Shown piece after piece: positions 3,301 through 50,819 of a stretch of DNA of 64,000 nucleotides; the stretch's first letter is position 1; every line of letters starts with the position of its first letter. The translations under genes and the position numbers were made by a program. Origin of the DNA: Dipteris shenzhenensis (lineage: Eukaryota). The stretch is taken from the NCBI GenBank assembly GCA_047967505.1, contig CM106538.1; one strand, given 5' to 3'. The notes beneath the pieces are model-generated. The model searched no databases. It had not been told where the DNA came from and saw nothing but the letters and a program-made list of their open reading frames with translations.

Positions 3301-3448
3301 ACACTGAAAGCTGACTTGGGCTTTCCTCTCTATTGGTATGAATTTCCTGGAGCTTCTTCAGCTGAGGCAACTTCTTGCGTACTGCATTTCCAGCTCTGCC
3401 TGCACAAAAGGGTACACTGCACAGGAAAAGCCTATGCTGTGGACCCAT
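320..3448 (-). CDS. PLS-class pentatricopeptide repeat protein with E domains (putative organellar RNA-editing specificity factor)
   Basis: 1042-aa ORF of repeated P-L-S triplets (LVDMYxKCGSMEDA..VFD.LP.RDVVTW..MI.GYA). It ends in P2-L2-S2 and E motifs (EHYTCMIDLLGRSG, MPFQPNTIVW, YVLMANIYA). The true start is uncertain: a splice-acceptor-like CTTTTGTGCAG lies at 3410-3400. Confidence 0.95.
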   Translation of the reverse strand: MGPQHRLFLCSVPFCAGRAGNAVRKKLPQLKKLQEIHTNREESPSQLSVCKSNNLMHTYVKRGSMVDALHVFDNMPKRNVASWNIMILAYAKQEEGAWALELYAQMYQEGIQPNGRTFVGALKACTSLAVLEGTHIDMKPAKVGCLLSGRAVHCQVVKSGFESDVFVGTSSVDMYVKCGSMKDAWCVFHGLPHRNVVTWNTMITGYAEQKDSVRALELYALMHQEGVTADHRSFIGVLKACIGLTALEEGKQGDGNSSSLGCLVKGRSVHFQVVKSGFESEVYVGTTLVDMYTKCGSIEDARYVFDILPHRNVVTWNTMILGYANLKETAFTLDLYARMHQEAVEADNRTFVAALKACRNSAAVEDGKQVDGKYARTSGCLAKCRAIHYQVVMKGFESDVYVGTTLVDVYTKCGSMEDARCVFDQLPYLDVVTWTAMILGYAEQDNSTAALELYARMHREGVTADHRAFVGALKACSSLAALEEGNQGDRKSQETGCFVKGRAIHSQVIKRGFEVDLFVGTALVDMYSKSGSMEDAQRVFDELPDHPVMTWNIMILGYAEQNYSALALALYTQVHQEGVSADQRTFVGALKACSSLVVVDESKQVDWRLLKTACLKKGRAIQSQIIGRGFESDLFVGTALVDMYVKLGSMEDAQCVFDDLPRRDVVTWTTIILGYAEQEDSAPALELYARMYLDGVKANSQTFVGALKACGSLTALEEGKQVKGKFVKAGCLVKGRAIHSQIVKSGLELDVFLGTVLVDIYTKCGSMEDARRVFDVLPDRDVILWTTMIVGYAQMTEGEEASKLYAQMQEQGLSPDSVTFVAILKACAYTAALETGKKLHSQASRVGSETITIVATSLIDMYAKCASMVDAHNLFNAMPTREVVQWNALIAGYAYQGESEPVFSLLERMSLKGMQPDGVTFLSVLTVCSHVGLVEKGLEYFQAISQQYGIIPMIEHYTCMIDLLGRSGQLEKAVSVVEKMPFQPNTIVWLTVMGACQKWKNVGLGRWAFQSAVGLDEQLSTLYVLMANIYADAHIWEEGYII

Positions 3449-4149
3449 AACTTCACCAATGAAGACAAAAGCAGAGAGTTATCTTAAACAAGACAGGATC
3501 CTGAGAGAACTACCAAGGGGAAACAAGAACAAAAGTGTGAAGCGCAAAGAGTCGCAAGCATGAAGACACAGATGGCAGACAACTCTGATGCGACAGTTCG
3601 AGCTCATATGCTTTGCAATTGACCACCATGTGACGTTGCTCCAAGGGGGACGATGTATGGAGCTGAGAAAGGGATGGAGGACCACCTGCTCTGTATGGAG
3701 GCAGTGAGCCCAGAGGGGTTCTTCCTGGTAGACTTCGGAAGGGACCTGGCAACAGCTTGTTTGGACTGTTGTGGCCATTGCATTTCGGCTGGGTGTGATG
3801 AGCCTCGTCCCTGTTTCTAAGACAACCGTCCTGCTGACGGACCACCAACAGAGCTGGTCTGAGGGGCGGCGCCTCGTGTCTGACCCGCAATCATATTGCT
3901 CCATCTCGAGTGAGGGAATGTTACTCATCAACGTTCAAACTTCAGACAGTCAGACAGTTGCCTGGCCTGTACGTGATATGGTGAAGCGAGAAACTATATG
4001 TGTATTGGGACAACTAGAAACTCATGGTTTAACTACATTGTTTCAAATATGACGGGGGAAGGGTCTCACCAGGATTTTGGAAAGTCCTTAGAATATGGCC
4101 ACCTGCCGGAGCCATGACCATGGGTGAGCTTTTTAGTTGTGAGACTTCT

Positions 4150-5309
4150 GCCAACGCCGTGGCTCATCCAGCAGGGTGGTTTCTTCATTTGCAAATCTAT
4201 ATCCTCAGCAGACAAGCAACCCTCGACTTGATTGTGAAGTCAACCGAGCTTTTTGACATTAGCTCTTCGTTCCTGTAATCAAGCATAGGGATTCAAATAC
4301 ACTTTTAACACCTTATTACATCAGATCTGCCAGGTTCATCAGATTGGCACACCTTATTCCCATGGCCAACCTTTTGGGCTCGGACGGCCGTCCAGATACC
4401 CCGGTGGAGGTTAAGCCAGAGAAGACACGAGTGTCACCAGGACGTTGCAGTCCCAGACCTTGGCGAACCTTAGAGACCACGTTCTCTCATCATCTCTCTT
4501 GAACGACATTTTGTTGAGTCTGGCGATCAATTCTTCCTGTCCCTCGTGAATGAGAGGGACCGGTGTTAAATTCCATTAACCCACCCACTTGAATTCCCTC
4601 GTAGTAGCACGAAGGAGCCACGCGCCTAGCCATGGGAGGTTTTCTCTGGTCCAAAGTCTTTGGCATTCCTTGACTAAAAGCAGGTCAAATGTGGTTAATA
4701 TGTACATGTTCAAGAGAGAGTTGTCGTTGTGCCACGTACCTTGACCACGGTCTTATAAATCTCCCCAAACCTTGATCCCTGTCTCCTTTTCTTGCCCACC
4801 ATTCCTCGTGTAAAGTTTGGATTGTGATGTCTCAATGATAGCCTCTACCTTGGCCTTGTCTCTGAAGGGTTTGAGCCTTTCCTGTCCCTGGGTTGACTCG
4901 TCCTCCTCCAAGAGCTTGATTTGTTCTTCAAGTCATTTGCGTCTGTCAGCTCTAGTAGAATCTGCTCGCTTCTTGATAGCTTTGAGAAAAATGCATGTTC
5001 TTTTTGTAGCCCTGATCCACTTTTCAGTTGCAATGGCTGTGCCATCAAAAGCTTTTTCCCAGATCCTGTTTATGTTCTATTGGACATAAGGTAGGCGAAA
5101 CAAGAAAGGGTTAGCTTTGAACCAAGACTTTCTTCTCTTGCCCTGGCTTTTATCCAGAGAAATTAGGATCGGTTTATGGTCCGAGAAGGGAAGAGAAACA
5201 AGGGCTTCGCTCTTGTAGCATATTTCTGAATCTACAATGTCTCTTGAGCAGTACATCCTGTCTATTCTTGCTTTCCTGTGGAGAAGGCTAGATTGTTTGT
5301 TAGTCCAGG
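4150..5309 (-). mobile_element. L1-like LINE remnant, 3' part (end of APE endonuclease, linker, zf-RVT-like tail; RT missing)
   Basis: Reads TWTNKQSSLLHRKARIDRMYCS...PFSDHKPI from 5309 downward. A zf-RVT-like LHRGIWTAVRAQKVGHGNKVC lies near 4345-4410. No RT motifs occur between them. Confidence 0.75.
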
Positions 5310-5661
5310 TGTGAAGATAGTGGGAGACAGGGAAGGAGTCTCACTTGCGGCTTTCTCACATACACAATGGGGGAATACACACGCAGGTGGAAGCTGAAAA
5401 CAGTTTTCCTCTTCTTAGTTGTGAAAGCCAAAAGAACTCTAGTACAAAGAAATAGAAGAACCCTATATGTGGGTCTCAAACCAAACTCAACTAACTAAGG
5501 TGGCATACTAACTGAGCCACGAACTAGAGTAGATAAGGATAGCTGTCATCCAGCTATTATTCGTGGGCAGTGTACCAACCGCATTTGCAGCTAACAAGTT
5601 GGTGACATAAATGCACAACGGTCACCTTGGCATATCGTGAGTGAAGCTCAATATCTCAACA
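5310..5661 (-). repeat. 3' LTR of Copia element
   Basis: Direct repeat of 10492-10834, abutting the PPT GAGGGGGAG on the minus strand. Confidence 0.95.
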
Positions 5662-5669
5662 CTCCCCCT

Positions 5670-8600
5670 CGAGCTCAATCCCAATTCCTGCACACCAAGC
5701 AGGTCTCTGAACTTGCGTAGCTTCTCTGCGCCCAATGCCTTCGTGAATATGTCAACTACCTAATCCTCTGTGCTGACATAAACTAGATCAATAAAACTTA
5801 GTAAAACCTTCTCCTGCACATAGTGATAATGCACCTCAATGTGCTTTGTTCTAGCATGATAGACTGGGTTATTTGCCAAGTGTATACTGCTCATGTTGTC
5901 ACAATAAATGACAACTGGGCCATCTGTAGACTGATGCATATCATAAAGTAGCTTATGCAACCAAGCTACCTCACATGCAGCCATTGTTGCACCCTTGTAC
6001 TCAGCCTCTATGCTCGACAAGGCAACTATAGGCTGTTTCTTGCTGCTCCAGGTGACTGCAACACTCGCAAAAGAGAACACACATCCATTGGTAGATCGTC
6101 TATCAGAAATACTACCAACCCAATCAGCATCAGTGTATCCATGCAACTATATCTGAACCCCAGCCTCATAAAATAGTCCATACTGCAATGTGGACTTCAC
6201 ATACCTGAGTATGCGTCTAGCCGCATCCAAATGCGGTTTCCTTGGAGCCTGCATAAACTGACTTACCAATCCAACAACATAGCTTAAATCTGGCCTGGTA
6301 ATAGTCATATAAATCAAACTTCCTACTATGCGTCTTACATAGTAGGGTCTTCCAGAAGCTCACTTGCATCTATGCTCAGCTTCACATTCTGCTCCAAAGG
6401 AATTGAAATAGGCTTACAGCCTGTCATCCTATATTTGGACAGCATGTCCAATCCATACTGCCTCTGCAAGAGCTGTATCCCACTTGGTGATCTAATCACC
6501 TCAATGCCCAAGAAATAACGCAGCTCTCCCAAATCCTTCATCTCAAACTTTTGCTTCAATAGCATTTTCACATGAAGGATATCTTCATCACTATCACCTG
6601 TGATGATCAAATCATCAACATAAATGACAAGCAACATAATACCTTTCTCTGTTTTTCTCACATAGAGTGAGAAATCTGCCTTGGAAATCTGAAAGCCAAT
6701 AGTGACAAGATACTGTCCTATCTTGTTAGACCATGCTCTAGGTGCTTGCTTCAAGCCATAAAAGGCTTTCTTCAACCTGCACTCAGGATGAATAGCATGA
6801 ACATAACCTAGTGGCTGCTCCATAAAGACCTCTTCTTACAAATCACCATGCAAGAAGGCATTCTTTACATCCATCTGATGTAAAGACCATCCCTTTGATG
6901 CAACCATAGCAATGACTGCTCTTACAGTTGCCATCCTTGCAACCGGACTTAATGTTTCTTCATAATCAATGCCATATGTCTGTGCATACCCCTTGACAAC
7001 TAATCTTGCCCTTGTATCTGTTCATAGAACCATCCGCATTGTGCTTGATCTTATAAACCCACTTACAGCCAATTGCATTCTTGTCTTTAGGCAAAGGCAC
7101 CAATTCCCATGTAGCATTTGCTTCCAAGTCCTCCATTTCTTCATCCATGGCTTTCTCCCATTTTTCATTTCTCATGGCTTGCTCAAAAGAAGTGGGTTCT
7201 GGTTCCTGTATCACTTTGACCATATAGGCATAGTGAATGGCTGTAAATCCATCATATTTCAGCCTATCCACAGGATACCTAGCTCTGGTAGACCTGTGCA
7301 AAATAGGCTCACTTCCAGGTGCTCTCAAAACATCCGTGGTCTTCCTTACTCTAGGTGTAACAACAGAAGGAATACCCAACTCATCATCAATGCTCTGTTC
7401 TGAGCCACTGGATTCACCATCCACATAAGAGTGACCTGCATTCACATCAAACATGGGCTGATCTACCTTCTCTTTTCCTTTTCGTGATACCTGCGTACCA
7501 CTATCTGCATTGCTTTGAAGAGATTCTCCTGATCTCAATCTACCTGTCCATGGCGAAGTATGTGAACCACTGCTAGAGGACACTGTAGGTCCACTGATAT
7601 TTTGTGATTACTGCTATGAATTCTGTGCAGCATTACCATTTTGTGCATCTACATCAATCATCACATTTATTGGTTTATACCAGCTACTCATCTCATCAAA
7701 AACAACATCTCTGCTCACTGTAAACTTACGAGTAGAAGGGTTATAGCATCTATAGCCTTTCTGCTGCAGAGAATAACCAATAAAGATACACTTCTCAGCT
7801 TTTGGATCCAACTTGGACCTCAACTCATCTGACACATGAACATAGGCAATGCAACCAAAAATTTTCAAATGAGAAATATCTGGTTTCCTACCAGTATACA
7901 TCTCCTCTGGCATCATGCCATGTATTGCTGCAGTGGGAGTCCTGTTCATTATGTAAACTGTTGTAGCAACTGCTTCAGCCCAATAATAATCTGGTAGATA
8001 TTTTTCATTTAGCATGGCCCGAGATACCTCTCCAATATGCTTGTTTTTCCTTTCTGCAAGTCCATTTTGCTATGGGGTATGACTGCATGAATATTGCTGC
8101 TTGATGCCATGCTCCTACAGGAACCTTGCAAACTCATTTGAGAGGTACTCTCCCCCTCCATCTGACCTTAGGCATTTTATTTGCAGGCCTGTTTCTTTTT
8201 CAGCCATAGCTTTAAAAGCTTTGAAATGCCCAAACACTTCACTGTTCTTTTTCATAAAATGCACCCAAACTTTTCTGCTGTAGTCATCAATAAAAGTGAC
8301 AAAATAATGACAGCCTCCAATAGATGCAGCTTTAGTAGTCCACACATCAAAGTGGATTAATTCCAATGGCTTCTTGCTCTCTTGAACATGCCTAGGAAAT
8401 GGTTTCCTTGCCTGTTTTCCAAATTGACAGGCTTCACATACCTTATGCATTTTTGCAACCTTGAATTTAGGCAATCCTGCAATAATATTTTGGGCCTGCA
8501 TTGATTTAAGTCGTTGTACATTAACATGACCAATGCGTTTATGCCAGATATCAATATCTGCAACAACACCAGTCCCATGTGCAAACATTACTACACTCAA

Positions 8601-9984
8601 TTCAGGCATGTCCACATCCAATGTAAACATCCTGCCCTTCTTCTTTCCTTTTGCTATCAAGTGACCGTTATTTTTCATATCCTCAACAAAGCATCCATGA
8701 GGATTAAATCTGACCCTCCTGCAAGCCCTGCTCAACCATTTGACCAACAGAAACCAGGTTCTTGGTGATATTCGGGACATGAAATACATCAGACAGGTAT
8801 TTTTTTTTCCCATCCTGCATAGACAAAGGAATTTTACCAATCTGCACAATAGGATGTGTAGTATCATCACCAATCTCCACGAATCCTGGTTTTTCCATTT
8901 TCCTTGCATCCTGCATCCATTCTGCATGATCTGTCATGTGGTTTGATGCACCTGAGTCAACATACCACACATCATTTCGTTCTTCTGCACTTGTCACAAA
9001 ATTGGTCATGTGCTGCACCATAAATAGATGCTCATTTCTATCATCACCCTGTCTACTAGAAGATGCATAATTGCCTTGCTGCAATTTTCCATTCATAATG
9101 TCATTCTGCTTTTTGTAGCAGTCCTTAGCCATATGACCCATTTTACCACAGTAGTAGCATTCAACATTGCTGTTTGCATTTCGACCTCTCTGCCATCCAC
9201 CACGGCCTCTTTGGCTCCCCCTTCCTCTAGAGTTACCACGTCCTCCTCCATAGGACTGGTTTTCTTGAGTTTGCTGCAAATTCTGATTTCTACCACGGCC
9301 TCTAGATCGGCCTCCTCTACCTCTGCCTCTACCTCTTCCAGCATTTGAGTAGAAGACAGTTTCTTTTGAAGTTCCTCCTGAAGAAGATGCACCCCCATTT
9401 CTCTGCTCTTCAGAAATTGGAAGAGCAAACAACTCTTCAAAATCAAGAAATTTTTCACGGATGGCAATGGATGTCTGGAACTGTGCATAATCCTTTCCTA
9501 GACCATTTAAGGTCACAGAAACTAGATCATCATCTTCCACTGGCGACCCAATGGAAGCAAGTGCATCTGCAATTTCCTTCACCTTGATGTGGTAGTCATT
9601 GATGCTCATATTTTCTCTCTACACATTGTGCAACTCCTGCTTGAGCTGCATTTTCCTGGCTTGCGTATTTGTGCTATACATTTTTGCCAAAGTATCCCAT
9701 GCCTCCTTTGGCATACTTGCATCCTGAATATGCAGAATCATAGAATCCGAAATACTGATAGACAGCCAGTACATAACTTTTCTGGCTCTCTCATGCCATC
9801 CTTTAAATGCCTGCATTTCCTGTTGATTGGGAACATTAGGAAGAATTGGTTCTTCTTCATTTCCTGTGATGAACTCCCAATAGCCTTTTCCCATAAGGAA
9901 ATTCGTCATTCTAAACTTCCATGCCTGGAAGTTGTTCTTGTCAAGCTTTTCAGTGACAATCTATGAAAGAGAATCAGACGCCAT
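5670..9984 (-). pseudogene. Copia gag-pol polyprotein with stops and frameshifts
   Basis: Gag begins MASDSLS*IVTEKLDKNNF at 9984, with an RGG-rich linker and zinc knuckle CYYCGKMGHMAKDC. Protease WYVDSGASNHM, integrase IDDYSRKVW/LRSDGGGEY, RT YVDDLII, RNase H YTDADW/HARTKHIEVHYH. Confidence 0.95.
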
Positions 9985-10834: not shown

Positions 10835-11620
10835 CCAGGTGAAGAACGTGTCTAAAGAGATATCAATGAACGTAGTAGAATCTTTGAGAGCATTCCAAGA
10901 AGATAGTTCCCTGCCCCTTAATATGTTTCATATTCCATTCCACCTGTCTCTACGGGATTCTACCATATTGAAGTCGCCTAGAAGAATAGTATATGTTGGA
11001 AGGCTCTTTCCATTCCAAAGAAGAGTCCTTTCCCTCGCGAAGTTAGGGGCATAGATAGAAAAATTTTGACAATTTAGATGAGGATGACAAAAGTCAACTC
11101 CTATCCCGAAGGTCTAAAAAATGGGTAGTGGGAGCGTGATTGCCTGGGTGAGGTGAGCTACTATTCCCAGAACTGCTCCACCTCTCCCTTCTTCGTGGTT
11201 GGTGCAAAACCACTGTCTTTTGTCATCTATCTAGCTGAACTGCCAGTGCAACTTAGCCCCTGAAACTTTAACCTCTTGTAAGGCTACAAAATCAAGTCTA
11301 AGGGAGGACCTTCCTTATCAGCTGTTTCATGTTCTGCTTGCTCCAACTGTGCCTCAAAATCTTGGGTGGCGACCATAAATTCCTCTTCACCCGAGCTATC
11401 CTCCATCTTTTCTTCTGTGTCAGTAATGATCTCTTTACCTTTTCCTTTTGCTTCACCTCCTCATTACAAAAATTTTGGACTCAAAGAGGGCCCTTTAGAG
11501 AATCATTAAAATATTAGAGGCCTGGATAACGGAATATGGAATCCATCAATGTGGACTTCTCTGTAACAAAGGCTCCTCAATTCTAGGGGAAATTTCATAT
11601 TTTTTTCAAAATACCATCAT
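10835..11620 (-). mobile_element. L1-like LINE remnant, 5' part (APE endonuclease N-terminal half, possible ORF1 tail)
   Basis: Reads DFVALQEVK...GRGGAVLGI...SIYAPNFARERTLLW...ILLGDFNMVE...DTFFTW. It joins the 5309 fragment in frame once the Copia and one TSD copy are removed. Confidence 0.85.
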
Positions 11621-11628
11621 TGGTTCTT

Positions 11629-11687
11629 CACAATAAAATATTGCCCATGGCAGGTCTGGCCTGACATGGGCATGACCATGTCAGGCC
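11629..11687 (+). repeat. Candidate transposon terminus: CACAATA motif plus 12-bp-arm hairpin
   Basis: CACAATAAAATATTGCCCATGG at 11629 resembles the minus-strand CACAATGAAAAAAGTTGGCCTTGG that starts at 13268. Perfect stem GGCCTGACATGG/CCATGTCAGGCC at 11658-11687. No TSD found. Confidence 0.35.
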
Positions 11688-11862
11688 TCCTTGTTTTCCT
11701 CCCATCCAAACTAGACCCCAACTAGAACTATGCTCACGTTTTCCTTCTAGTTCAACAAACTTTGACTTCCAAACCAACTCTCTCACTGTTCTCTCTCTTC
11801 CAAATCGTTTCACCTCCTCCATGCACTCCAAAAATGCATTCCTACCATCTTGTAGCACCTTG

Positions 11863-12062
11863 TTTCAAACTATCTCTATTCTACTCTTGACTAGTCATTT
11901 TTCCTCCTCTTTGTGCATGTTTTTCTTACACATGCAAAAATCTCTTAGAGAAAACTTCCGTCCAAGCTTCTTGTTTCAATCTACTCTTGATTAGTCACTT
12001 TCCCTCCTCTTTGTTCAAGTTTTTCTTATACCTGTGAAAATCTCTCAGAGAAAACTTCTGCC
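11863..12062. repeat. ~100-bp tandem duplication
   Basis: CTACTCTTGA(C/T)TAGTCA...AGAGAAAACTTC starts at both 11881 and 11981. Confidence 0.85.
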
Positions 12063-12429
12063 TAAGCTCTATTCATTCCTCCTCTCTTCTATTTTGTTAT
12101 TACTTCCATTCATTCGTACATTGCTACTCTCTTCTTAGAAACCAAAGGTACAACGTGATTCTTCTTTGAAGGAGTATGAAAAAAGGGTGTTCTATTATTT
12201 TTGCCTCTTTCTCTACCTAATTGGAGTATAAAGAATCAACTTCAGAAAAAAGGACACATAGTTTCGAGGTAATGAAGTGATTTCACTTTGAAAGTCATCT
12301 CTTTATTATGTTTTTATCTCACAAGTCATTTGTATGTTTGTTGCAAAAGGTAGAGAGGAAGAGGAGATAGAGGTTGATGATATTTAGAGCCATAAGATTA
12401 TTTTGACATTTGTTTCTTCTCTGGTATAG

Positions 12430-13793
12430 GAGGGACAGAGAGAGGGAGAGCCTCTTAGAATTAATGGAAGTAACCGGTCTTCGTGAGGATGAGGTGCTAT
12501 GCCATGTTGCAAATGATGCCTTCGATGATTCCATTGACTTCAGTGCTCTCATCGATCCAAAGGTCAATGAGATAGCACACTATGATGACTCCAACCTTAG
12601 CGGTTTAGAGGCAATCTGCCTCATACAAAAAGTGATTGAGGATGTCGAGCCAAAGTACCAGATGTCCGATGAACAATTCCTAGATTTGCAGAGAAAGTTG
12701 TTCGGGGACAAAGAGGAAAAAGGTGGCACCTCAAGTCAACATGAAGTGCAAGACGAACCACAAAAGGGATTGCAGCTGGACACTATGGTTGATACCCTTT
12801 GCGATGAGGCAAAAAGGGTATGTACTTTTAATAGCTTAGGGTTTATTTTCATTATTTGATTCATATCGCTTATTCTCTTCTAGTTTTCCATGATAATATT
12901 CTTCTAGCATATAGAATGCATGAGTGTTTATGGTATTTGTGGAATATTAATAAAAAACATGCAAAAAAATCAATGTTCATTAGGGAATCAAACCAGGGTT
13001 TAGGGTTTAACAAAAATTAATTCTTTTAAATCTATGTGATCATTCAAAACATCTGAAGCATATTGTGAGTTTTAAGGTCCAAAAATACAAGATAATATTC
13101 CCACCTGAAAATTTTAAGGTTTGAATAGATCATTTCTTTTTTGGATTTTATGGGACCCCATGTACTCCAAATGACCCCAAACTTCACCATATGACTGATC
13201 ATGCCCAGAAGGACCCTAGAAGCATAAAATCCGGCATCGTGCGACCAAGGCCAACTTTTTTCATTGTGCAACCCTGGTCGCATGATGTCGGATTTTGTGC
13301 TTCCAGGGTCCTTCTAGGCATGATCAGTCATATGGTGAACTTTGGGGTCATTTGGAGTACATGGGGTCCCATAAAATCCAAAAAAGAAATGATATGTTAA
13401 AACCCTAAAATTTTCAGGTGATTTTTAAGACTAGGATTTATCCTACCATAAATATGCTTTCATATAATCACAAATCAAGGTTTAGGTTGTTGATGTGGTA
13501 TGTTTATTCCATGATATTTTGTGGGTTGATAAATATGTGAGGCACAAGGGCGGAAGCAGAAGACCTTCTGCAGGAGGATTGACTTCATTTGGTCACTATA
13601 TTGACCAAGTTCAAAAGCACATTTTGATCTTTCATCGACAATTATCGCCCGAAGGAAATTTGAATATTATGAAGTTCAGGGTCCTGGATGGACAAAGAGG
13701 GAGAGAGGGTGCGAGAGTGAGAGAGGGGGATGGGGGATCAAGGGCAAGTGGGAGGGGGTGTTGTGTGGGAGGGGAGAACTCTTAAAACGATGA
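12430..13793 (+). pseudogene. Putative spliced ORF of unknown function, convergent with the RAG1-like transposase
   Basis: Acidic exon 12430-12817 (acceptor TATAG, donor AGG|GTATGT). A phase-0 exon at 13542-13793 reads AQGRKQKTFCRRIDFIWSLY*PSSKAHFDLSSTIIARRKFEYYEVQGPGW, with one TGA at 13602. Splicing is inferred. Confidence 0.45.
13102..13420. repeat. Long inverted repeat (~150-bp arms, ~21-bp spacer containing CATTGTG)
   Basis: 13102-13250 is the near reverse complement of 13272-13420. The ORF track shows the same peptide on both strands. Confidence 0.95.
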
Positions 13794-14035
13794 AATGAAA
13801 ATGAGAGCCAATTCCTTCATATAGGGCCCAAAACCCTGCTTTTTGAAAATACTTGTAGAACATGAACTTGGCGCAACCTTGAGCTCAACATAACCTCCAA
13901 AAGCATAGAATTGGTGCAACCTAGATCTGGTAACCTATAATTAACATTGAACAACCTAAGATTTTCCTTTTTTTGCATTGATACGCTGACTTGATTGCAT
14001 ATCACCTAACTAAAATTACAAATAAATTCTGAAAT

Positions 14036-16753
14036 TTATGAATGGGCATCCACATTGGAAGAGTCTACACCATCAATTTCATCTAACTCCACCCATATAC
14101 ACCCATCTTGCACTAAGGACTCTTTGAATGCCAGTGTTGCAGTTGCTCTTATTTCGATACGCCTGTACCACCATCGAACTAATTGAACCATCAGGCTTGA
14201 CTTAGTTCTACCACCCCCATGTTGGGTCGCCCTGTTATACACACAACGTGGTTGCCAATGCGATCTTTCCATGCCCTGAGTGGACCACACTCCAATGCTT
14301 CCATCATGCCGCCATGCCATGTATGGTGCATGTGCATATAAAATGTGCTACCAAACAAGAAAACAAATTAATAAGTATGGGGCCAATCAATATGTACATC
14401 TTAATATGTAAGTTAGAGATTACCATGCACTGTGTGAAATGATTCTTTCCCTAGGCGCGATCTCCATATTCTGGCTAAAGTCATTCACAGCATTGATAAA
14501 ACGATGCGCATCATCATCTTTGAACCTTTTCTTTTGTAGCAAAGGTACCAAGCTATCAAGAGCTAACCAAACTCGAGCTTTTTCCTATCTTTTTTTCCCC
14601 TTTCCCCCTCGTTCACAATAGGCATTGTGTAACTTTCGCCATACATCAAACTCATCAGCACGTTTGAGCCTATCATTCTTTTTCTTTGCATAAAGAAATT
14701 TTAAAGCCTTGACACCTCCAAAACTTGGCTTACAAGGAACATTGCCTGTTTTTCCAAATCTTTTCTCATCTTTTGTAATCTTGACTCACCCAGAGTGTAG
14801 TCCCATATCTGAAAGCACTTTTTCAATTCTTGCAATCATTCTCTCACTTTCTTGTTGGGGCTTTAAGTTATATGCATCAATGATATATAGATGCACCAGC
14901 TTTTCAATTATTCTCACAATGGCATGAAGGGCACAAATATGTACTCTCTGAAGAGGAATTTCAAGAATTGGGCTCCACGATGGATCTTTCCTCGGAACAT
15001 CACGATCTGGTGCCTTTGTCTGATCAATCTCTACAGGTTCACAAGCCCATTGCTTTTGGTTCTTTTTACTTGCCTGTAATGGTACTCTCTTTTGTATGCA
15101 CAATGGACAAAGATGGCTTGTATTTGCTCCATGTGCCACATTAAACATATATTTAATAGTGAGGTCAGTAGCCACATGCCATTCTACACAATAGGATCCA
15201 TAGCCCTCAACCTCAAGTAGCTCACCATTGTTAAGACCTTTGATCACACTTGGGATATCTATTTGGTCAAACAAAATTGAATGTGACTCCTTTGGCACCT
15301 GTAAAACCAACTCACATTCTATTTCAAAATATTCCAAGCATTTTCCATTATTACCAAATCAAAATTCAAATTTCCATGGTACCTCAAATGCAGCCAGCCA
15401 CCAAATCCTATTCTGATTGAACGCTGAACTGCCTTGCATCATCAAGCTCAACTTGAAGGTCCAATATTCTATTCACCAATATCAAACTGACTCTTTCTAA
15501 TTTTTGACCTTTGACGACATCGCTTTCATCAAGCTTTAGTATAATCTTTAGTTGACCATTGCATTCTTCCACAAGCATATCATAAAACTTGACCATGGCT
15601 TGCAAAACTCTTTGAACATCCATAATAAAGTTGTTGTTGACTGTGAGTTCCAATTCTTTGGACTCTCCAGCCTTCCCTTTCACAGTTAGTGTACTACATA
15701 CATGATGAGGCTCACCAACTAAATCAAGTACACCCAAATTGAGAGCATGCCTTACCTTATCAACATCGGTGGGTTTTGGAAGCGGGGTTTTATCTTTTGT
15801 TCCTACAAAAAGGCATGCTTTCTTTGAGCTCTTAAATATGAGACGATATGCCCTCGTACTTATCCCTGTAGTGTCACAGACTCCCTATGCATTACTTGCA
15901 TTAAATTGCTCCACAACTTTGCTCATGGAATTGGATGTTATCTCTGATTTTAGACTTTTGAATTTCGGATGTTGTATAGTAGACTCCAACATTTTTTCAT
16001 AAACACTTCACTCATAGCACAAGACTGTTCATCATGGATAGACATGAGTTCTAAAACAGTCCTACAAGCTCTCACTCGACACTTCCAATGACCACTTTTC
16101 TTGGATATTTCATCCATTGAATGCAAGTTCCTCTTACAAAGTCTTGGACCCATAGGAGTATCCTTCATGAATGCTAATGTTCTTTCCAATTTCTTGATCT
16201 CATATTTAAGAGATGTGTTTTGTGTCTATAATTGAATTACATTTACAGTGTGCTCTCCCAACTAAGCATCTAATGTTTGAACCTTTTCCTATAATTCATG
16301 ATTTTTATTCTCTATGCCATCATACCATTTTTCTTTTGCAGTCATCTGAACAGTTGTAGCTTGCATAGATGATACCAAATGTTGATTCCAAGACTCTAAC
16401 ATTGAAATCCTTTTGTCTCTTTCGTTAAGCAAAAATTCATAGTGGGTGTGAAGGCTCCTTGCTCCATGAACAATCAACCTTTTACAATATCCTGACAAAC
16501 CATTCTCACCCTTACATAGAAAATTTATTAAGCTAGTCAACCCATGGAATTGAGGGGCCTGACAAGTTTGTGGATCTATTGGATATATCTTCCCATCTAA
16601 CCACAAATCCATATGAGTTTTTTCTTGATTTTGAAGAGCTACCAAATCAATTTCACTTGCTAAGGAGGATTCATTCCTCTTCAGAAATGGTGCATTTTCT
16701 GCATCAATTTGAAAATGGATGTCCACCTTTTTCTTTTTCCTAAGGGCCTCCAT
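14036..16753 (-). pseudogene. RAG1/Transib-like DDE transposase with a 76-bp intron (several stops and frameshifts)
   Basis: Ordered motifs: CDTTGISTRAYRLI, LKIILKLDES (D ~15529), WHVATD (D ~15165) x18 CPLC, VHICALHAIVRI, then HFTQCM|intron 14423-14348|HILYAHAPYMAWRHDGSIGVWSTQGMERSH (E ~14268). Confidence 0.8.
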
Positions 16754-17639
16754 GGTTTCATACACTTTCCACCTAACACAACATAATATTGACATCAGCA
16801 AAGAACATATATATTCAACGCACAAAACTAATACCACATACAAAAATCACATAAATAATAAATAATAATACCAAATCACAAAACTAATGCCACATATACA
16901 AATCACATAAATAAAATAACCTTGCCTTAGAAAAACATAGTAAGTCAATTAACGTAGTAAATTACACAAAACAACATATAGTATAATTAATATCACAAAC
17001 ATAATTAAACTATTGTATGTATAGAAATTAAAACAAACTATATCAGACATGCTTTAAAGAATAATGAATATCAATAACATCAGCACATATACATGATAAA
17101 ATGACAGAAAACAAAACTAATATCACATACAAAGATAGCACACTAAATAATAATGACTTGCATAGCAAATTTAGAGGCACAATTGAGTTTGTAAATCATA
17201 AATAAACAACACAAATCACATCAAAATACTACAGACATTGTTAAAATATCAAATGCAAAACATATCAAACACTTAAATAAACAATACCTGATTCTTAAAA
17301 TAGAGATCTTTGGAGAAAAACGTGATCAAACTTGTTCTCCTCACTGGACCCTCTTGTATTACAAGAGGCTGCTGCAGATGGATCTTACTCCATAACAAAT
17401 AATATGCAACTAAACATCTCGAAATCTATTTCAAAATAGAAAATTATACATAATAAGAGTGTAGAGACTACTCTTTTACTATTGCACTATTCTTTCTTCT
17501 AAGAAAGCCTCTATGAGCTCACTTTTCATGAAAATTCTTTCAAATGTTTAAAAAAACAAAAACTTGTGAATGAATAGTACCTGATTCTTGAAAAAATGTG
17601 ATCAAACTTGATCTCCTTAATGGCTGGACTAGTACGAGC

Positions 17640-17850
17640 GTAATGCACTAACTGCTTACTAGATGCAAGGTGAAGAGATGATGCTTCATAAGCGAAGCAA
17701 CATTGCCACGTAGAAACAAGAAAAAAGTGTGGCTTTTACTCAGATGTAGTAATGGGGACACTTCTTGTCAACATGTATGGTCAATGTGACTAAATGGTGA
17801 ATGCACATGTAATCTTTGATGATATGGATTATCATGGAGTATGGATGACA
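17640..17850 (+). pseudogene. PPR-gene fragment, part of a segment duplicated at ~30.7-31.2 kb
   Basis: Reads DVVMGTLLVNMYGQCD*MVNAHVIFDDM. Nucleotide similarity to 30890-31210 continues to ~18090. Confidence 0.65.
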
Positions 17851-19255
17851 ATAAATAAGCCACCTCAATTGAAAAGAAATAAAAAAAGTATTGAGTAGTT
17901 GAGGAAGGCATGTGGGAGGGGTGGTTGATTAGTTGAAAAGGCATGATGGGAGGGGTAGAAAGGCAAGGAAAGGGATAAAGACAAGAGTGACTAACAAAAA
18001 AATCCCTCTATTTATGACGGGAAGGCCCTTTCCCTCTGTCTTATATGTGAGAGCATAAATTTAAAACCCTTATACTCTCACAACATCTTCATGTAGCATG
18101 TCCTGAGTTTTGCCCCCCATTTTAAAGAAATTTCATTGTATCTAGCCTTTGATATTAGCTTAATTTGGGATACTCCACCTCTTTACCAAAGAGACCAATT
18201 GAATTTCTCAATTGGAAAATAAATTCCTTTTCAATTACCTTTCTCCTTAGGCCAAGTTATATGCATGGAATAATTTGTTGAGATTAAGCATGCCTTTAGA
18301 ATATGTATATGGGAATTATAATTGAAAAAACTAATCAAGGGAGCACTAAATGTTTTAAAAATGCCAAGCCATTCCCTCTTTGACAGCTCTAACTCCTTTA
18401 AGGTCTTGGGTTCAGTTCCTGTCAAGGTGAGACCATATTTTGGATAAAACTCTGCCTTCTTAAGGCACAAGTTGGACTACTTTAGATACTCCACTTTAGA
18501 GCTTTACGTCTGCCTGCACACAGATAGAAGAATATTTGTTGTAAACATATATAATATAATAATTATTAATATGGATTATTTAAATAAGAATTTAAGCTAA
18601 ATGTCACCAAGTCCCTCTTTCTTTAGAGTTTTCAAGAATTTCTCTTTCTCTCTCATCTTTCATTTCTTTCTCAACCTCACTTTGCACCATAAAACATTAT
18701 AAAATTTCAGCTGATACCAAGAGCAATCATGCCTAAGTGTCATAGTGCAAAAAAATTATACCCAAGAATTTCCTTATCATGGAGAGAAAGCGCATGAAAG
18801 CTACTTAGAAATGTAGTCTCAAGCTACTAGTGCTAGGAAGTACAAAAGAAAATAAGATTTTAGCAAGCATACAACATGTCAAGTTAATTGCTAAAGAGAA
18901 AATGAGTGAAAGTAGATTAATGTTATGCTAGTTGGCATGTGTATGCTAACTTCAAAATACCACTGTATTTTCTTACATGCTATAGGTATCAAAGCTAATG
19001 TAAGTGTTTTATTATGTGCATTCATGTTAAAAGAAGATACAAAGCACAAGTTATCACAAAGTTATTTCTCCTTGTTAATATCTCCTTGTGATTTTAGACT
19101 ATAACATACTACTACAATGCAAATACAAGAACTATGTACACCAGGAAAAAAAATGGAAATATAGATACATGCATCAAGAGAAAGAAAATCCATGTAAATC
19201 CATAGAAGAAACAAAAGAGAATATATTAAGTGGTAAATGAAGAGCATATGCTCAA

Positions 19256-22200
19256 TGTAGGCCATCCTCTCTCGGTCATATTGATGCCCTTTGGGCCTTG
19301 GTATGTGCCATGTAGCTTTAGTTATTGGCACTTAGGTCACGTAGTACTTTTAGTGTCTAAAATGTACCTATATCTAAAAATCTAAGTGTTTTTGCACATT
19401 TGTTAGCCCCCTTCTATAAGTGTACATGTCTTAATGTGTGTACCTACTTCATACAACCTTCCGTATAAGTGTACCGATAGATCAATTGTTCGTACAGCTT
19501 GTACCTGCTCCATGCCAACAGCCTACTGATAAAGAGTGATATCACATGGTGGGCTCCCATCATGAGGTGAAATTTGAAGCCAGGGTCCACTGGAGTAGCA
19601 ATTGGCTTGCAATACTCAAACTAAAAATGATCAAGGAGCTGTCCAATATACTTGGACTATGACATCATGATACCCCCCTCAACATGAGCAAACTAAATGC
19701 CCAAATAATAGTGCAACTATCCCATGTCTGACATTTCAAAAGCTTGCTGTTGTAAATCAGCCTTGAAAGCTAGCAATATGTCATCCACATATAAAATCAA
19801 CACTAAAAAGTCAGATCCACTCCCATGGACATAAAGAGTGGGCTTTGTGGGGCTATTCTGAAAACCAAGGGATAGTAAGTGTGCATGAATTTTAGCATAC
19901 CATGACCGGGGTGCTTGCTTCAAACCATAAAGGGCTTTTCTCAGCTGGCATACCTTGTTTTCAAAGCCAACAACCTCAAAGCCACGAGGTTGTGTCACAT
20001 AAACTTCTTCCTACAGATCCCCATGAAGAAAGGCAGTCTTGATGTCAAGCTAGTGCACTTGCCAATGGTGATGGGCTGTAATAGCAATGACACATCTAAT
20101 AGTAATAATCCTGGAAGTGGGAGTAAAGGTCTCCTCAAAGTCAATGCCTTGTTGTTGGGCATACACTTTTGCAACAAGACAGGATTTGTGTCGATCTATG
20201 CTGCCATCAGATTTCCTTTTTAATTTGTAGGCCCACTGAGTACCAATGGTATGCTTGCCGGGAGGGAGATCTACTAATTCCCATGTGTCATTGTTGGCAA
20301 TAGATTGTAGCTCTCAGCTCTCATTACATCCATCCACTCTTTGTTGTCAAAAGCATCTTTATGGCATAAAGGCTCTTCATTGCAAGCTATAGCAAGGAGT
20401 ACAAACTCAAGAAAGTGACCATGCATCTGTTTATTCCCTAATCTTGCCTAGGCAGCAAGAGGTTGATCTTGTTTGCTGTCCCTTAATGTGTCAAAAAGCC
20501 ATCTGGTAACTTGCCTTTGCTATCTATTGATAGCTCTTTCTTCAATCATTGCATCATGAATAATGGGATCATTTTGTGCTAGAAGAGGAACTTGCAAATC
20601 AGCATGGGGTGCTAGCTGATCATTGCTTGTTGGAGGGCTTGCAAGAGGCTCATGTTGCTAGTCAAAGTCCCCCTCTGAGGGAAGCAGAGGTAACCAAGAG
20701 TCAAAGGCATCAAACTTGTCAACTTCTGGCTTAGCTTTGCAGTCCACAAGAGGAGAAGCCAAAAGTTCAGCAAAGATTACATCTCTACTGATGACAATAA
20801 TCTTCCTAGTATTTGGTTGATACAACCGATACCCTCTGCTCTCCTAGCTATAACCAATAAATATGCATTTTATTGCCTTATCATCAAGCTTATGTTTCAG
20901 CTGAGATGGTACATGAACATATGCAAGAGACCCAAAAACTCTCATGTGTGAAAGTGAAGGCTTCCTACCTTTCTATGCTTCATAAGGTGTAACAGTCCTC
21001 AATTCCCTTGTTGGTGATCTATTTAGCACATAGTTGGCACACATCACTGGATCAAGACAAAATTTATTGGGCAAGGACTTGGCCTTAAGCATGCATCTGG
21101 CCATCTCCATAGTGGACCTGTTCTTCCTTTCAGGAATAGGATTATGCTGAGGAGTGTAAGGAGTAGTGCATGAGTGAACAATGCCTCGTGAAGACAAAAA
21201 TGCATCAAACTCCTTTGACATATACTCTCCCTCCCTATTTGTGTTGAGGGTGACAAGCTTGCATCCTGATTCATTCTCAACCATATTCAGCCACCTCTGA
21301 AAGCATGAGAACACTTCAGATTTGGCTTTTAAAGCATATACCCAGCAATATCTTGTGAAGTCATCAATTAGAGTCATGAAATATTTGTACCCCCCTATGG
21401 CATTTGTCCTCATTGGGCCACAAACATCACTGTGCACTAGTTGCAATTTCGTTTGTGAGAGTTTTGGACAATTCTTTTGAAAAGGAAACCGATGCATCTT
21501 ACCCAAAAGACAACCCTCACACACATGTTTGGAAACTGTGTGAGTTTGAGGTACATCATTTGTCATGCCCTATGAATGTAACTTGGCAAGAGCTCTATAA
21601 TTGAGATGACCCATTCTCTCATGCTAAAGATGAGTTTCAGCAAGCTGTGAACCTGAAATAGCAAATGCTTCAATAGAAAGTGCAGCTGAGTGATGATCAA
21701 GGTGATAAAGCCCCTTTTGCAAAGTGCTAGTAAGAACTATGGCATTGTCATCATGAAGATCATATATTAGGCATCTGTATCCATCAAAAATCACTCTGAA
21801 ACCTGAAGTGGCAATTGCTAAAATTGAAATCAAGTTGACTTCAATCCTAGGCACAAAAAGAACATTTGTCAAAGTGATAGGATGGCTTGAAATGGATGTG
21901 AGCTGCACATCTCCAATTCCTTATTTAGCATAGGAAGCATTATTAGCACATGTGACAGTCCCCCCTTGAGGTGCATTAGTTAAGGAATGAAACAACTATC
22001 TGCAAGATGTGACGTGCTTGGAAGCACCACTATCAAAATACCAATACTAAGCATCATTAGTAATAAAGAATGCATCAACTTTGGATGGATCAAAGGAGCA
22101 ATGGATGGCCCATGCCCAATCATCCTGGAGAGCATGTGCATGTGAGGCATCTACTGGCTTATGGGATTCAATTGCATGTGAGGCATTGACTGTCAGTCTT

Positions 22201-24540
22201 GCTTTCTTTTTCTCCAAAGCAATGCACTTCCTGCATTCTGAAATTTCATGCCCTGTCTTGCGACAATAGTTGCATCTTTTCTTCTTTGACCTATCTGCTG
22301 TATTTTGAGATGCATTGGAGGAATTGGCACTATTATGTGCATGTTTAGGCTTGGAAGCCTTGCCTTTTCTTGTCTACTGTGAAGCAAATGCATGATCAGG
22401 AATAGTAGCTTGCCTATTAGCACGACTTTGCTCTTCCTAGTGACTAACTGATCAAAGGAGTAGTGGTCTGGATTACCCATGGCCACTAGTCAAAGGGTTG
22501 TAGCAAACCCTTGATATGTATCTAGCAATCCATTCAATGTGGTACTAACAAGCTGAGAATTTGGCACCACCTCATCAATATTGGCAAGTTGTTCCATGAG
22601 GTATTTGACCTTTGTCAAGTATGCATCCATAGAGTCACCTTCATTCATGCTGACTTCTTGTAAAATGGGTGGAATAATGATTCTCTTGCATGATAAAGCA
22701 ATACACGAATGTGCAATTGCATCTCTTGCATCCCATCTTGTTTGTTCCTGAGTATAAGGAGTAGTAATAGGGGTGCTAGAGGATAAAGCATCAAGAGGAG
22801 TACCCTCTACAGAGGGACCAGTAGTAGAGGCAGCGATGACTGTAGCATTGGCTGGCCTCAGATCAACTCAAGAAACAATGTTTCAAAAATGCCTTGCAAC
22901 AAGAATATGTTTCATGAGATAAGACCACATCGGATAGTTGGTGCCATGCAACTTATCATCTTCACGAAGAATACCAAATAAATCATGATTGTTGCTAGCC
23001 ATTGCAAATGGGATATCCCGAAAAGAAAAGACCTGAAAATACAAAAGCCTCAAGGCTACAGCAAATGTTTGCAAGTGAATGTCCAGCAAATTTCCAACCC
23101 AAATCAAGGGGCAAATGCAAATTTGACCCAAATGTGACTGTGTCAGACAATGACAACTGCAAAAATCAGCAAATCTGGCAAAAGCTCCAAATATAATGAG
23201 GGCAAAAAGCCAAAAAGAGGGAAAATATAGCAAAGCCCCAAATTTTGCAGAGATTTTGCAAATGTGACCCAATGTCTTGCAATTTGACCCAATGTCCTGC
23301 AATTTGAACAAGAAATTGCAATCCAAATTCCAAAGCTCCAATGTCTTGCAAAAGACCCAAAACTACAAATGTCTGTAGATGACTATAGTGAGACCCAAAA
23401 TGGGTTATAGCAAGTAAGAACCTGGTTCACAGCAATGCCAAAATAGTCGGAATGGCTGTAGGCAATCTGTTGGTAGATTCGCACGTGCGGAGCTTGTACG
23501 GAGCACCTACAGATGTCTCATTTACTTATGCCACACCATACTTCACTTACAGTATGCAGTATCTCAGCTCAGTAGGTTCCTACACATGCCGAGTTTCATA
23601 GCATTGGTAGGCTGTGAAGAGAGTCTTTAGATATCTCAGAGGCACTTAAGATTTAGCCCTCTTCTATGGTGAGATCAAGGTTCACTTACCATGCATGCTT
23701 ACACGAATAGTGATTGGGCAAGTTGTTCTAACACCAGAGTGTCACATACCAGCAATTGTTTTTTTCTTGGCAGTTCACGTATCTCTTGGCTCAACAAGAA
23801 GCAACCAATAGTTGCCACATCCAGCTATTAGGCTGAGTAGAGAGCAGCCTTCATTGCTACAGTAGAGTGTATCTGGCTTCGACAATTATTTACAGATCTT
23901 GTTATTCGTCAAACATCCTCCACTATGGTCTATACTAATAGCCAGAGTGCTTTGGCCATTGCATGTAATCCAGTGTTTCATGCACGTACCAAGCACATTG
24001 AAGCTCACTATCATTATGTTCGAGAGTGGTTGTTAGCAGGAGACATAGAGTTGTCCTACCTTCCCATAGGGGACAACATAGCATATATGTTTACAAAGGC
24101 ACTTCCTTGTCCCAAGTTCAAAGTCTTTCGATAGGCTTTACACTTGGTTCCCTTTGTTACATGATCTGGCATCCCTTGTACATTCATAGGTGGTTATATC
24201 CTTTTGGATGAACATGTGCCACCATGACCAGAAAATACCAAATATTCTGAGATACTTCAGCCCATACCATGGAGGGGGGTTTGTAGGCCATCTTCTCCCG
24301 GTCGTATGGATGCCCTCTGGGCCCTGGTATGTGCCATGTAGCTTTAGTTATTGGCACTTAGGTCACCTAGTACTTTTAGTGTCTTATGACACCTAGTACT
24401 AGTGGTACCATTAGGACACTAGGTCCTAGGGTTCTCTTTTATAGTACTTTGTACTTTCATTTTCTTTACACTAGTTGATGTGACAGCCTTCAATTTTTTG
24501 CTTCGACTCTTGTGCTTGCTTCCACTTCCATGTACCTACA
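19256..24540 (+). mobile_element. Ty1/Copia element with inverted internal gag-INT-RT block and truncated 5' LTR
   Basis: TSD CTCAA at 19251-19255 and 24541-24545. 3' LTR at 24282-24540 after PPT GGAGGGGGG; 5' LTR stub at 19256-19358. gag/PR/INT/RT lie on the minus strand (~23000-19516), the RT end and RNase H on the plus strand (~23513-24134). Confidence 0.9.
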
Positions 24541-28609: not shown

Positions 28610-29080
28610 TATGATAAAGAAGCCATGCCCAATTGAGATGAAATTAAGTGAAAAATGGGCTGAAATTTTTAACAACCCATTAATAAAGAGTACATTTTTG
28701 TGTGTTGCATGCCGAGATGCATCTCATTGATATGGTGCTTTATTTGCACATTGTTTACATGTGGAACAAGAAACATGAAGAGAGTTACATCATGTACCAC
28801 AAGGGTTGAAGCTCTTTTATTGAGCATGGTCCTACATGGAGGAAATGAAAAGATATGTAAATCTTTACACAAAGCTCTCAGGAAAATCAAGAGACCTTCC
28901 ACGAAAAGTGTCAATAAGGCCGAGAAGTTTTTTACCAATCATGGAAAAAATTGATCAAATATGCATTAGAATTATTGGAAAGTGTTATGCAAGTTTACCA
29001 ACAATTTGGAAGCTAACCCTTGATGTGAGAAAATACCTGTTTGCAAAGCATTATATAACTTAGTGATATCTCCTAATAAT
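28610..29080 (+). pseudogene. Second, divergent fragment of the RAG1/Transib-like transposase
   Basis: VHFCVLHAEMHLIDMVLYLHIVYMWN...RVEALLLSMVLHGGNEKI...KLSGKSRDLPRKVS (across frameshifts) parallels VHICALHAIVRIIEKLVHLYIIDAYN...RIEKVLSDMGLHSG*VKI...RFGKTGNVPCKPS at 14.7-14.95 kb. Confidence 0.75.
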
Positions 29081-30399: not shown

Positions 30400-31000
30400 A
30401 TACTTCTCTCCTAGAATCTTGTAAATATGAGAAGACATCCTCTCCGGATCCATACCTACGAGAGAGATGCATGGAAAGTTGAAATTGGGTTCAAATTCTC
30501 GCAATGTGCTCATGCATAATTTGTACAACTGTATAATGAGGATGTCTTCTCATAGAGTTGTATTATATTTTGAACAAATGCGTAATGACGACGTCTTGTG
30601 CAAATATATAATCCACATATTTTGTACACATGAATAATCAAGATGTATCATTGAAGCAAATGCCTCGACTGGGCAACCTATTCTACATGTGTTACCAAAA
30701 CATCACTCTCAGAAGGAAAATGCATGGTTCATGCATTACAATGTGTGGACTAGAATCAAAGAGCAGTCTTGGGATTGTCCTCGTCAACATGCATGGGAAC
30801 CCTGGTGGCCTAGGCAATGCATGTGAAGCATTTGACAAGATGCCTACCATGATTTTGGCTCTTGGACTACTACAATGGTATTTTATTTAGATGTCGTGAT
30901 GGGGCAACTCCTTGTCAACATCTACAATGAATGGGAGAGGATATTGAATGCACATGCACTCTTTGTTAATATGGACGATCATGACTATGGATGACAATAC
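30400..31000 (+). pseudogene. Degenerate PLS-PPR gene fragment
   Basis: RRKMHGSCITMCGLESKSSLGIVLVNMHGNPGGLGNACEAFDKMP and DVVMGQLLVNIY are decayed PPR motifs. Confidence 0.7.
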
Positions 31001-31949
31001 GGATGATCATAACATGTCCCCCCAATTGAAAATAGAAAAGTACTGATTAGTTGAAAAGGCACGAGGGGAGGGTTGGAAGGCAAGGATCTCGAATGGTAAA
31101 AAGGAGAGTTATTAAAAAAAACATTCCTCTTTTTATGATAGGAAGTCTCATACCTTGTTATGTTTGACCATATAAATTTAAAATCCTTATACTGTCACCA
31201 CATCTTCATACAGCCTAGTGGAAACTCATGCCCGGGGGATTCACAAGGGGAATATAAGGATCCTGAATGATATTGGTGTAATACTCTAATGGCTTGGTCA
31301 AATTCATGATTTGCATCAATTTGAGATGTAGATGCAAACCACATAGTAGCAAGTTTTCTCTTTAGTCAATTGATTGATTGGTACCCTTGACTTAGGTTTC
31401 CTTTGTTTAAGGTCATCTAACCATGCTCTTACGTTCTCTTTAGCAATTTCTTCCATATACTTTGCGAAAGGTATCCTTTATTAGGTTTGAGTTTTAAAAG
31501 TAATCCATTAGGTTTTGGTAGAGCCACTTTGTTGCTTTGTGCTGGGTACAAGCAAAATAATCTTCCTTTGAGTTGCATCCATGCATTAGGCAAACCTAAT
31601 AGAATATTTGCAATTGGTTGAGTGGGACTTGTTCATGTAGTCATATGAACTTCTAAGCTTTACTTGATTTTTGTGTGTTGTGACATCTTGTTGGCCTTTC
31701 TCGAGAAGTGGGGGTGTTGATATACGATCCTTAGTATCACTAAAGAAAACAACACATTTGATGATATACACCTTTTTGTGTCATATTACAACATGACATG
31801 ATACAACATATACCTAATCCTCCAAAGATTTGATGTGAGACCATAAGGAACATGCATTAGTGTGTAACCTTCTACCCTATACATTATACATACATGGATG
31901 AGACCTACAATTGATCCATATATGAATAAATCTCTTACCTGATTCAATG

Positions 31950-50722: not shown

Positions 50723-50819
50723 CGCCTTTAAAACAGCTCTTCCAAAACCACAGCGGTTTTCTAAAACCGGTTTGCCTTCTTCCGCCAGAGAGTCTCAATT
50801 CTATTAGCCGCCTTTCGCC

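Follow-up and report, generated by a model that had tools for sequence, protein, structure and literature searches.

RAG1 and RAG2 are the textbook case of a two-gene transposon that was turned into a host system. Transib and RAG1-type elements are defined by terminal inverted repeats (TIRs) that resemble recombination signal sequences (RSSs) and start with CAC, and by a 5-bp target duplication. Transib is described as a single-gene element, and the RAG2-like second gene encodes a Kelch-type propeller, often with a PHD finger. ProtoRAG is described as having RSS-like TIRs and convergent RAG1L and RAG2L genes, and the way in which a Transib-type transposase acquired its dependence on a partner is still debated (PMC9435367). 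Here we analyze a stretch of 64,000 nucleotides from Dipteris shenzhenensis (contig CM106538.1 of GenBank assembly GCA_047967505.1), called the window throughout, which is plant nuclear DNA. A reading of this DNA from sequence only had proposed a RAG1-like plant transposon with its own accessory protein. The proposal holds at the level of the family, where a convergent gene that is not RAG2 is present, and a remnant of that gene survives in the window; it falls short in that the conserved C-terminal domain (C-domain) of the partner is missing from the window. We consider it probable, although well short of certain, that the region from 11.9 to 17.2 kb is a dead copy of a two-gene, cut-and-paste plant DNA transposon with a RAG1/Transib-like transposase and a convergent partner.

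The transposase gene and its fold class

The minus-strand gene, whose stop lies at 14036 in the list of open reading frames (ORFs), is a transposase pseudogene of several exons at 14036-16846, delineated by phmmer, by tblastn and by alignment to two of 19 related loci (L006 and L002) that were obtained by scanning metagenome contigs with alignment A2. Its last exon (14036-14347, minus strand) encodes an HxxxxH motif, then GS.G.W..QGME, the catalytic Glu block, and then HGGG, and it matched 13 loci by tblastn with E values of 1e-25 to 1e-5. The exon at 14786-15358 (minus strand), as aligned, contains the second Asp block, a CxxC motif and an H.C..H motif; its Asp block reads ATDL-TIK, one residue shorter than the GDLKTLK of the family. 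The first catalytic Asp block, KLDESD, lies in the exon at 15408-15884 (minus strand), which is 63% identical to the L002 ORF. The window copy retains KLDESD, ATDL and QGMERSH. We extended the gene to 16846 because five metagenome loci (L001, L006, L012, L011 and L007) have, in the N-terminal part that precedes their core, sequence similar to the ORF at 16289-16846 (E values 3e-19 to 2e-14). The overall identity to the L006 and L002 ORFs is 40-41% over approximately 400-460 aligned columns.

When the 190-aa piece encoded at 14786-15358 was the query of an exhaustive phmmer search, 116 representatives were recovered at E <=1e-3, 37 of them at <=1e-10. The majority are fragments of 80-300 aa, and when mapped back by tblastn the relatives cover 14120-15989 of the window. 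A word-index protein search with the same exon gave no match at the "longer" lengths; as phmmer did find the family, blanks of the word-index search are weak evidence. Two short, stop-filled insertions interrupt the window gene at about 15359-15280 and 14431-14348 (minus strand). They are probably introns and not lesions, since L006 also has insertions at these places while the ORF of L002 is continuous.

The window transposase is a dead fossil, with three in-frame stops and one frameshift identified by alignment on the minus strand. The stops are at 15885-15887, between NASNA and GVCDTTGIS in the block aligned to exon 2 of L006; at 14786-14788, between GLH.G and V.I.KD of a conserved block; and at 14585-14587, between GKKR and EKARVW of another conserved block. 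The frameshift is at 15408-15418, between FSVQSE and IWWLAAF, where the relatives are uninterrupted. The copy itself has no functional importance. A second, short and broken fragment of the same family is found at 28687-28999 (plus strand, opposite to the first copy), with weak matches from 28186; it runs from the H.C..H block onward, contains stops, and no partner remnant was detected beside it. The introns, and the fact that no element ends were found, would fit a domesticated pair of host genes instead of a transposon. We regard that explanation as extremely improbable, given the lesions of the window copy, the second broken fragment, and the fragmentary state of most of the 116 relatives.

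In order to determine the fold class of the family, an AlphaFold model was made of a homologue, P0101, in place of the window protein. P0101 is 479 aa in length and spans all three acidic motifs, and its D5 lies in the block that corresponds to KLDESD of the window. The model had a mean predicted local confidence (pLDDT) of 69 and a predicted TM-score (pTM) of 0.68. In a Foldseek search with this model, the best 47 ranks were all RAG1, BbRAGL or HzTransib chains, with 6dbo_A as the best match (E value 1e-6, TMq 0.49) and a HzTransib match, 6pqr_A, at 1e-3; the next fold was Hermes at 0.04. VIA-align against 48,161 chains gave a concordant result: RAG1 chain 4wwx_E aligned with a Z score of 16.4 over 326 residues (root mean square deviation 4.4), placing model residues 1-391 on RAG1 596-987, followed by BbRAGL (6b40_E, Z 15.2) and HzTransib (6pqn_A, Z 13.4, 282 aligned), and the next families were the P element at Z 9.3 and Hermes at Z 6.6. 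The modelled catalytic core of P0101 has the RAG1/Transib fold, including the large insertion that precedes the catalytic Glu. The catalytic residues of RAG1 are D600, D708 and E962, and residues D5, D111 and E362 of P0101 fall within 0-5 residues of those positions as judged from the VIA-align offset, not from a residue-level superposition.

The order of motifs is likewise conserved in the family: an Asp, a second Asp approximately 106 residues on, CxxC some 20 residues further, H....H, and the Glu. Counted only among the sequences that span each site, 35 of 41 representatives have the second Asp and 44 of 53 have CxxC, each of these two features is present in 14 of 15 locus pieces, and the H....H...E pattern is found in all nine locus pieces and both representatives. 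The label "RAG1-like" given to the gene by the sequence-only reading is borne out by Foldseek and VIA-align for fold and motif layout, and sequence searches show no such likeness. An early lead, which likened the last exon to the region around E962 of RAG1, was confirmed by no sequence tool.

Several findings tell against the assignment of this gene to the RAG1/Transib kind. Pfam searches with 10 pieces of the window, with seven homologues and with six locus ORFs reported no family, and neither phmmer against the PDB with two exons nor the profiles A1 and A6 returned a RAG1 or Transib chain at E <=10, so that similarity to the RAG1 core or to Transib transposases was not seen with sequences or profiles. 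The evidence of fold comes from a homologue that is 24% identical to the window protein, and the confidence of the model is low around E362 (residues 354-365). It might be argued from these sequence-level blanks, from the lack of RSS-like ends among the features found, and from the small number of eukaryotic transposase superfamilies that are structurally solved, which makes "closest in the PDB" a limited test, that the family constitutes an unclassified DDE superfamily of its own, with a core that is merely closest to RAG1 among solved structures. This explanation appears quite unlikely to us: Z scores of 13-16 over 280-350 residues compare with 9.3 for the next transposase, the alignment extends beyond the RNase H core and takes in the long insertion that separates the second Asp from the Glu, the D/D/E spacing, as placed by the VIA-align offset, agrees with that of RAG1 to within five residues, and the CxxC and H....H motifs are present. 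The model shows a predicted fold class of RAG1/Transib type for the family of gene 1. The family lies far beyond what sequence profiles call Transib, and it seems to be a hitherto unrecognized variation on the Transib/RAG type.

The convergent partner gene

The clearest view of the second gene is given by locus L006, a contig of 6.1 kb in which the transposase occupies three open exons. Downstream of it, the opposite strand has an acidic ORF of 433 aa (3822-5120) and a further ORF of 175 aa (3290-3814), with a gap of about 160 nt to the transposase. Relatives of the L006 partner ORFs were found by tblastn in L019 (E values 2e-12 and 5e-31, with stops) and in L016 (E value 2e-16), their relative position and strand matching those in L006. 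Only five of the 19 loci are informative in this respect, with >=500 nt of sequence past the last transposase match, and in three of the five (L006, L016 and L019) the partner C-domain lies on the opposite strand in a tail-to-tail arrangement; these three have, like ProtoRAG, a convergent second gene beside a RAG1-like gene. The tail-to-tail linkage of the two genes is conserved in divergent relatives. Since the partner proteins of L006 and of L019 or L016 are only 46-50% identical, we consider the linkage to be old.

A profile of the 175-aa part of the partner found 21 further proteins, with E values from 7e-82 to 7e-5. The intact relatives are approximately 600 aa in length and consist of an acidic N-terminal part, a conserved C-domain of approximately 100 aa, and an acidic/basic tail. 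None of the 21 contained a Pfam domain, and no Kelch, PHD or other Pfam family was detected in the window ORFs, the L006 ORFs or these relatives, which agrees at the sequence level with the earlier statement that the partner is not recognizably RAG2. A search of the ESM Atlas with the 433-aa ORF of L006 gave no usable match. The C-terminal piece of the transposase is 86% identical between L006 and L016 and the partner C-domain approximately 50%; either the partner evolves much faster or modules have been exchanged.

We then asked what remains of this gene in the window. A profile was built from six relatives, without the window sequence, for the beginning of the partner's last exon, a region picked after a weak similarity had been seen by eye. 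Among 2693 six-frame pieces of the window, the piece at 13486-13782 (plus strand) ranked first, with an E value of 3.8e-5 and 20.8 bits, and the next piece had an E value of 0.31; the homologous stretch is approximately 13519-13653. The piece remained first when each relative was left out in turn (E values 2e-6 to 4e-4), and the best E values of the controls were 1.8 for reversed sequences and 0.11 for five-fold shuffled sequences. Because the margin is large, we accept the homology in spite of the choice of region by eye. The window keeps a significant remnant of gene 2, a remnant of its last exon at 13486-13785 (plus strand), at the place and on the strand predicted, the frame ending about 250 nt from the transposase stop.

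The sequence-only reading had a plus-strand feature end some 240 bp from 14036, and this was correct: the relevant frames have their ends at 13785 and 13793, which puts them about 245-250 nt from that stop. Its second exon, drawn at 13542-13793, has to be given up, since that frame is interrupted by an in-frame stop at 13602-13604 and the homologous frame is the one at 13486-13785. We had also matched the frame-0 ORF at 13605-13793 to the C-domain by eye, and dropped this match because it had no profile support.

Upstream of the remnant is a stop-to-stop ORF of 150 aa at 12407-12859 (plus strand), in which an ATG lies at 12464 and position 12817 is directly followed by a GTATGT donor. The part from the ATG to the GT donor (12464-12817) is acidic and has 118 codons, and it is in phase with the frame at 13486, which follows an AG. 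ORFs of at least 150 aa occurred in 0.8% of 2000 shuffles of 11629-14035, and 1.5 of them are expected across the whole shuffled window. It is reasonable but unproven that 12464-12817 is the upstream exon of the partner, as ORFs of the 150-aa size are rare by chance locally and the ATG, the GT at 12818 and the phase with 13486 behind an AG are all in place. Of the partner exon proposed earlier at 12430-12817, the ORF, ATG and donor are confirmed, and no homologue was found. Lying in the putative partner intron between these two segments, at 13102-13420 (319 nt), is a repeat resembling a miniature inverted-repeat transposable element, a hairpin with arms of 149 nt that are 93% complementary and 21 nt apart; no other copy of it exists within the window.

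A number of results weigh on the other side of the two-gene reading. The related loci are metagenome contigs. Two of the five informative loci, L002 and L013, lack the partner, so that the linkage expected by the sequence-only reading holds in three and fails in two; the DNA downstream in L013 is 511 nt only, and in L002 an intact, intronless transposase ORF of 527 aa (3-1586) has as its downstream neighbor, in the same orientation, an ORF resembling histone H3 (1675-2229; Pfam Histone, 7e-34). The remaining 18 of the 21 partner proteins might occur without a transposase. In the window, the C-domain is missing downstream of the remnant, its profile giving no match (E value 11, rank 9). The 150-aa ORF had no relative in the word-index protein search and no lead in the ESM Atlas (best score 0.85), and when the upstream exon of L006 and L019 was searched against the window it came third by phmmer (E value 7.6) and was absent from the profile matches. 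As the fold of the partner is not predictable (the C-domain model had a pLDDT of 45.7), likeness to RAG2 is excluded at the level of sequence only. A BLASTP comparison of the 150-aa ORF with L006 gave E values of 0.044, for a non-collinear piece, and 0.67. As a separate observation, L002 may represent a variant that is partner-less or retro-copied.

These results bear on two further explanations. In the first, the transposase pseudogene is real but the apparent partner in the window does not belong to the element: the 150-aa ORF would be a chance or unrelated frame and the match at 13486-13782 fortuitous. The ORF without homologue, the 1.5 such ORFs expected in a shuffled window, the failure of the C-domain profile and the choice of region by eye all suit this account. 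It nonetheless seems improbable, because the remnant is first of 2693 pieces by a wide gap in E value, survives the leave-one-out searches and stands clear of controls at 0.11-1.8, because it is on the predicted strand at about 250 nt from the transposase stop, to be compared with about 160 nt in L006, and because an ORF of this size arises in so few of the local shuffles.

In the second, the partner has no role in transposition and was inherited with the transposon as a passenger that began as a captured host fragment or an early nested element. In favor of a passenger are that the partner has no known domain, that it diverges much faster than the transposase in the comparison of L006 with L016, and that the intact transposase ORF of L002 has no partner downstream. 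We regard a passenger as unlikely, if less so than the explanations above, since orientation and spacing persist across lineages whose partners are no more than half identical, the partner ORFs are open in L006, and conservation of the C-domain among 21 protein clusters is a sign of purifying selection.

Element ends, repeats and genomic setting

The sequence-only reading had the element begin at a CACAATA motif followed by a hairpin at 11629-11687. Both are present, the motif at 11629-11635 and the 12-nt hairpin arms at 11658-11669 and 11676-11687. They are not supported as an element terminus: the window contains 13 copies of CACAATA where 12.8 are expected, and since the count equals the chance expectation the motif marks nothing. 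No inverted CACAATA exists between 16846 and 20500, and a local alignment of 11601-11760 with the reverse complement of 16847-20500 scored 21, compared with a mean of 21.6 for shuffled sequences. To the findings that speak against the two-gene transposon should be added that no TIR and no target-site duplication was found in the decayed window copy, and no terminus in L006; none of the loci has been shown to span both ends of an element.

Repeats are found near both genes. Two tandem copies of a 100-nt unit lie at 11880-12068 (85% matches), upstream of the candidate partner exon, and a repeat search revealed a cluster of short direct repeats at 16816-17231, upstream of the transposase start, with no inverted copy of them on the other side. 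In L006, tandem units of 89-95 nt occupy 5036-6066, upstream of the partner gene, and the 9-mer GACGCGATA has 10 matches in both orientations, all in 5056-6066, where 0.47 are expected. Either group of repeats in the window may represent subterminal binding sites, and the tandem units and GACGCGATA of L006 may likewise be regarded as candidates for such sites.

Elsewhere in the window, a long pentatricopeptide repeat (PPR) gene with an E motif lies at 320-3478 (minus strand), a copia-type retroelement at 6335-9960 (minus strand), its gag, integrase and reverse transcriptase pieces occupying 6335-9618 in several frames, and an ORF with an AP2 domain at 49988-50794 (minus strand). An endonuclease-like "GDFN" stretch was spotted by eye in the ORF at 10928-11113 (minus strand). 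Two pairs of dispersed direct repeats, at 17734-18092 and 30881-31209 (66% identity over 375 nt) and at 19256-19358 and 24282-24384 (93% over 103 nt), are unrelated to each other, and their orientation misfits a single element common to both transposase fragments.

Comparison with described transposon systems

The observations can be joined into a proposed mechanism. Gene 1, on the minus strand, would encode an Asp-Asp-Glu (DDE) transposase with the core architecture of RAG1 and Transib, and this transposase would have used nicking and hairpin formation to excise the element, like Transib and RAG. Gene 2, on the plus strand, would converge on gene 1 with stops approximately 250 nt apart and encode a rapidly diverging protein that belongs to no known family. 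This protein would be an accessory factor, either required for transposition or regulating it. Its product may have bound the repeat clusters adjacent to the genes, or the transposase itself, and it would be a functional analogue of RAG2 and not a homologue. We infer this role in transposition on the sole basis that the linkage is conserved. In the window copy, gene 2 lacks its conserved C-domain and has gained the insertion of the hairpin repeat, and the element ends are unrecognizable.

A wider proposal follows the same lines, and we put it forward tentatively, as something that may well prove wrong: that plants and related green lineages hold an unclassified and deeply divergent RAG1/Transib branch, which acquired its own convergent gene independently, that the two-gene layout therefore has two or more origins, each with a different and unrelated partner, and that the partner is needed for transposition. 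If this is true, a RAG1-type core with an unrelated but conserved partner in plants is an independent natural experiment on partner dependence, and a type of transposon invisible to Pfam-based surveys is added to those described.

In the literature, 39 "potential Transib-like proteins" in plants are mentioned without detail (PMC9435367), a screen for DDE transposases recovered only 35 Transib transposases (bioRxiv 10.1101/2021.09.26.461848), and a screen of 1007 plant genomes with Pfam profiles, Transib included, reported active autonomous elements in seven superfamilies, with Transib not among them (PMC12973397). A two-gene RAG1-like plant element was not found described in our literature search, Repbase being outside that search, and the two-gene RAG1/Transib-like lineage of plant transposons is probably undescribed.

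Among plant elements, CACTA/En-Spm (TnpA and TnpD) and PIF/Harbinger (transposase and a Myb-like protein) resemble the present family in having an accessory protein beside the transposase and clusters of repeats next to the genes. The CACTA/En-Spm transposase is of the Transposase_21/DUF4218 type, and no Pfam match to Transposase_21 or DUF4218 was obtained for the window, the homologues or the locus ORFs; the transposase described here matches no CACTA or Harbinger Pfam family and has instead a predicted fold like that of RAG1. Transib, represented by HzTransib of Helicoverpa zea, has the same catalytic-core fold in our comparison with the modelled homologue, and it too is a DDE enzyme in which a long insertion separates the second Asp from the Glu. 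It differs in that the family here has no detectable sequence similarity to it, contains introns and a conserved second gene, occurs in a plant genome, and has yielded neither TIRs nor target duplications. From RAGL/ProtoRAG the family is set apart by a partner that is not RAG2-like, with its acidic N-terminal region and C-domain of approximately 100 aa, and by the lack of RSS-like ends among the features found. With RAGL/ProtoRAG, and with RAG1-RAG2 itself, it shares a predicted RAG1-type core and a layout of two convergent genes.

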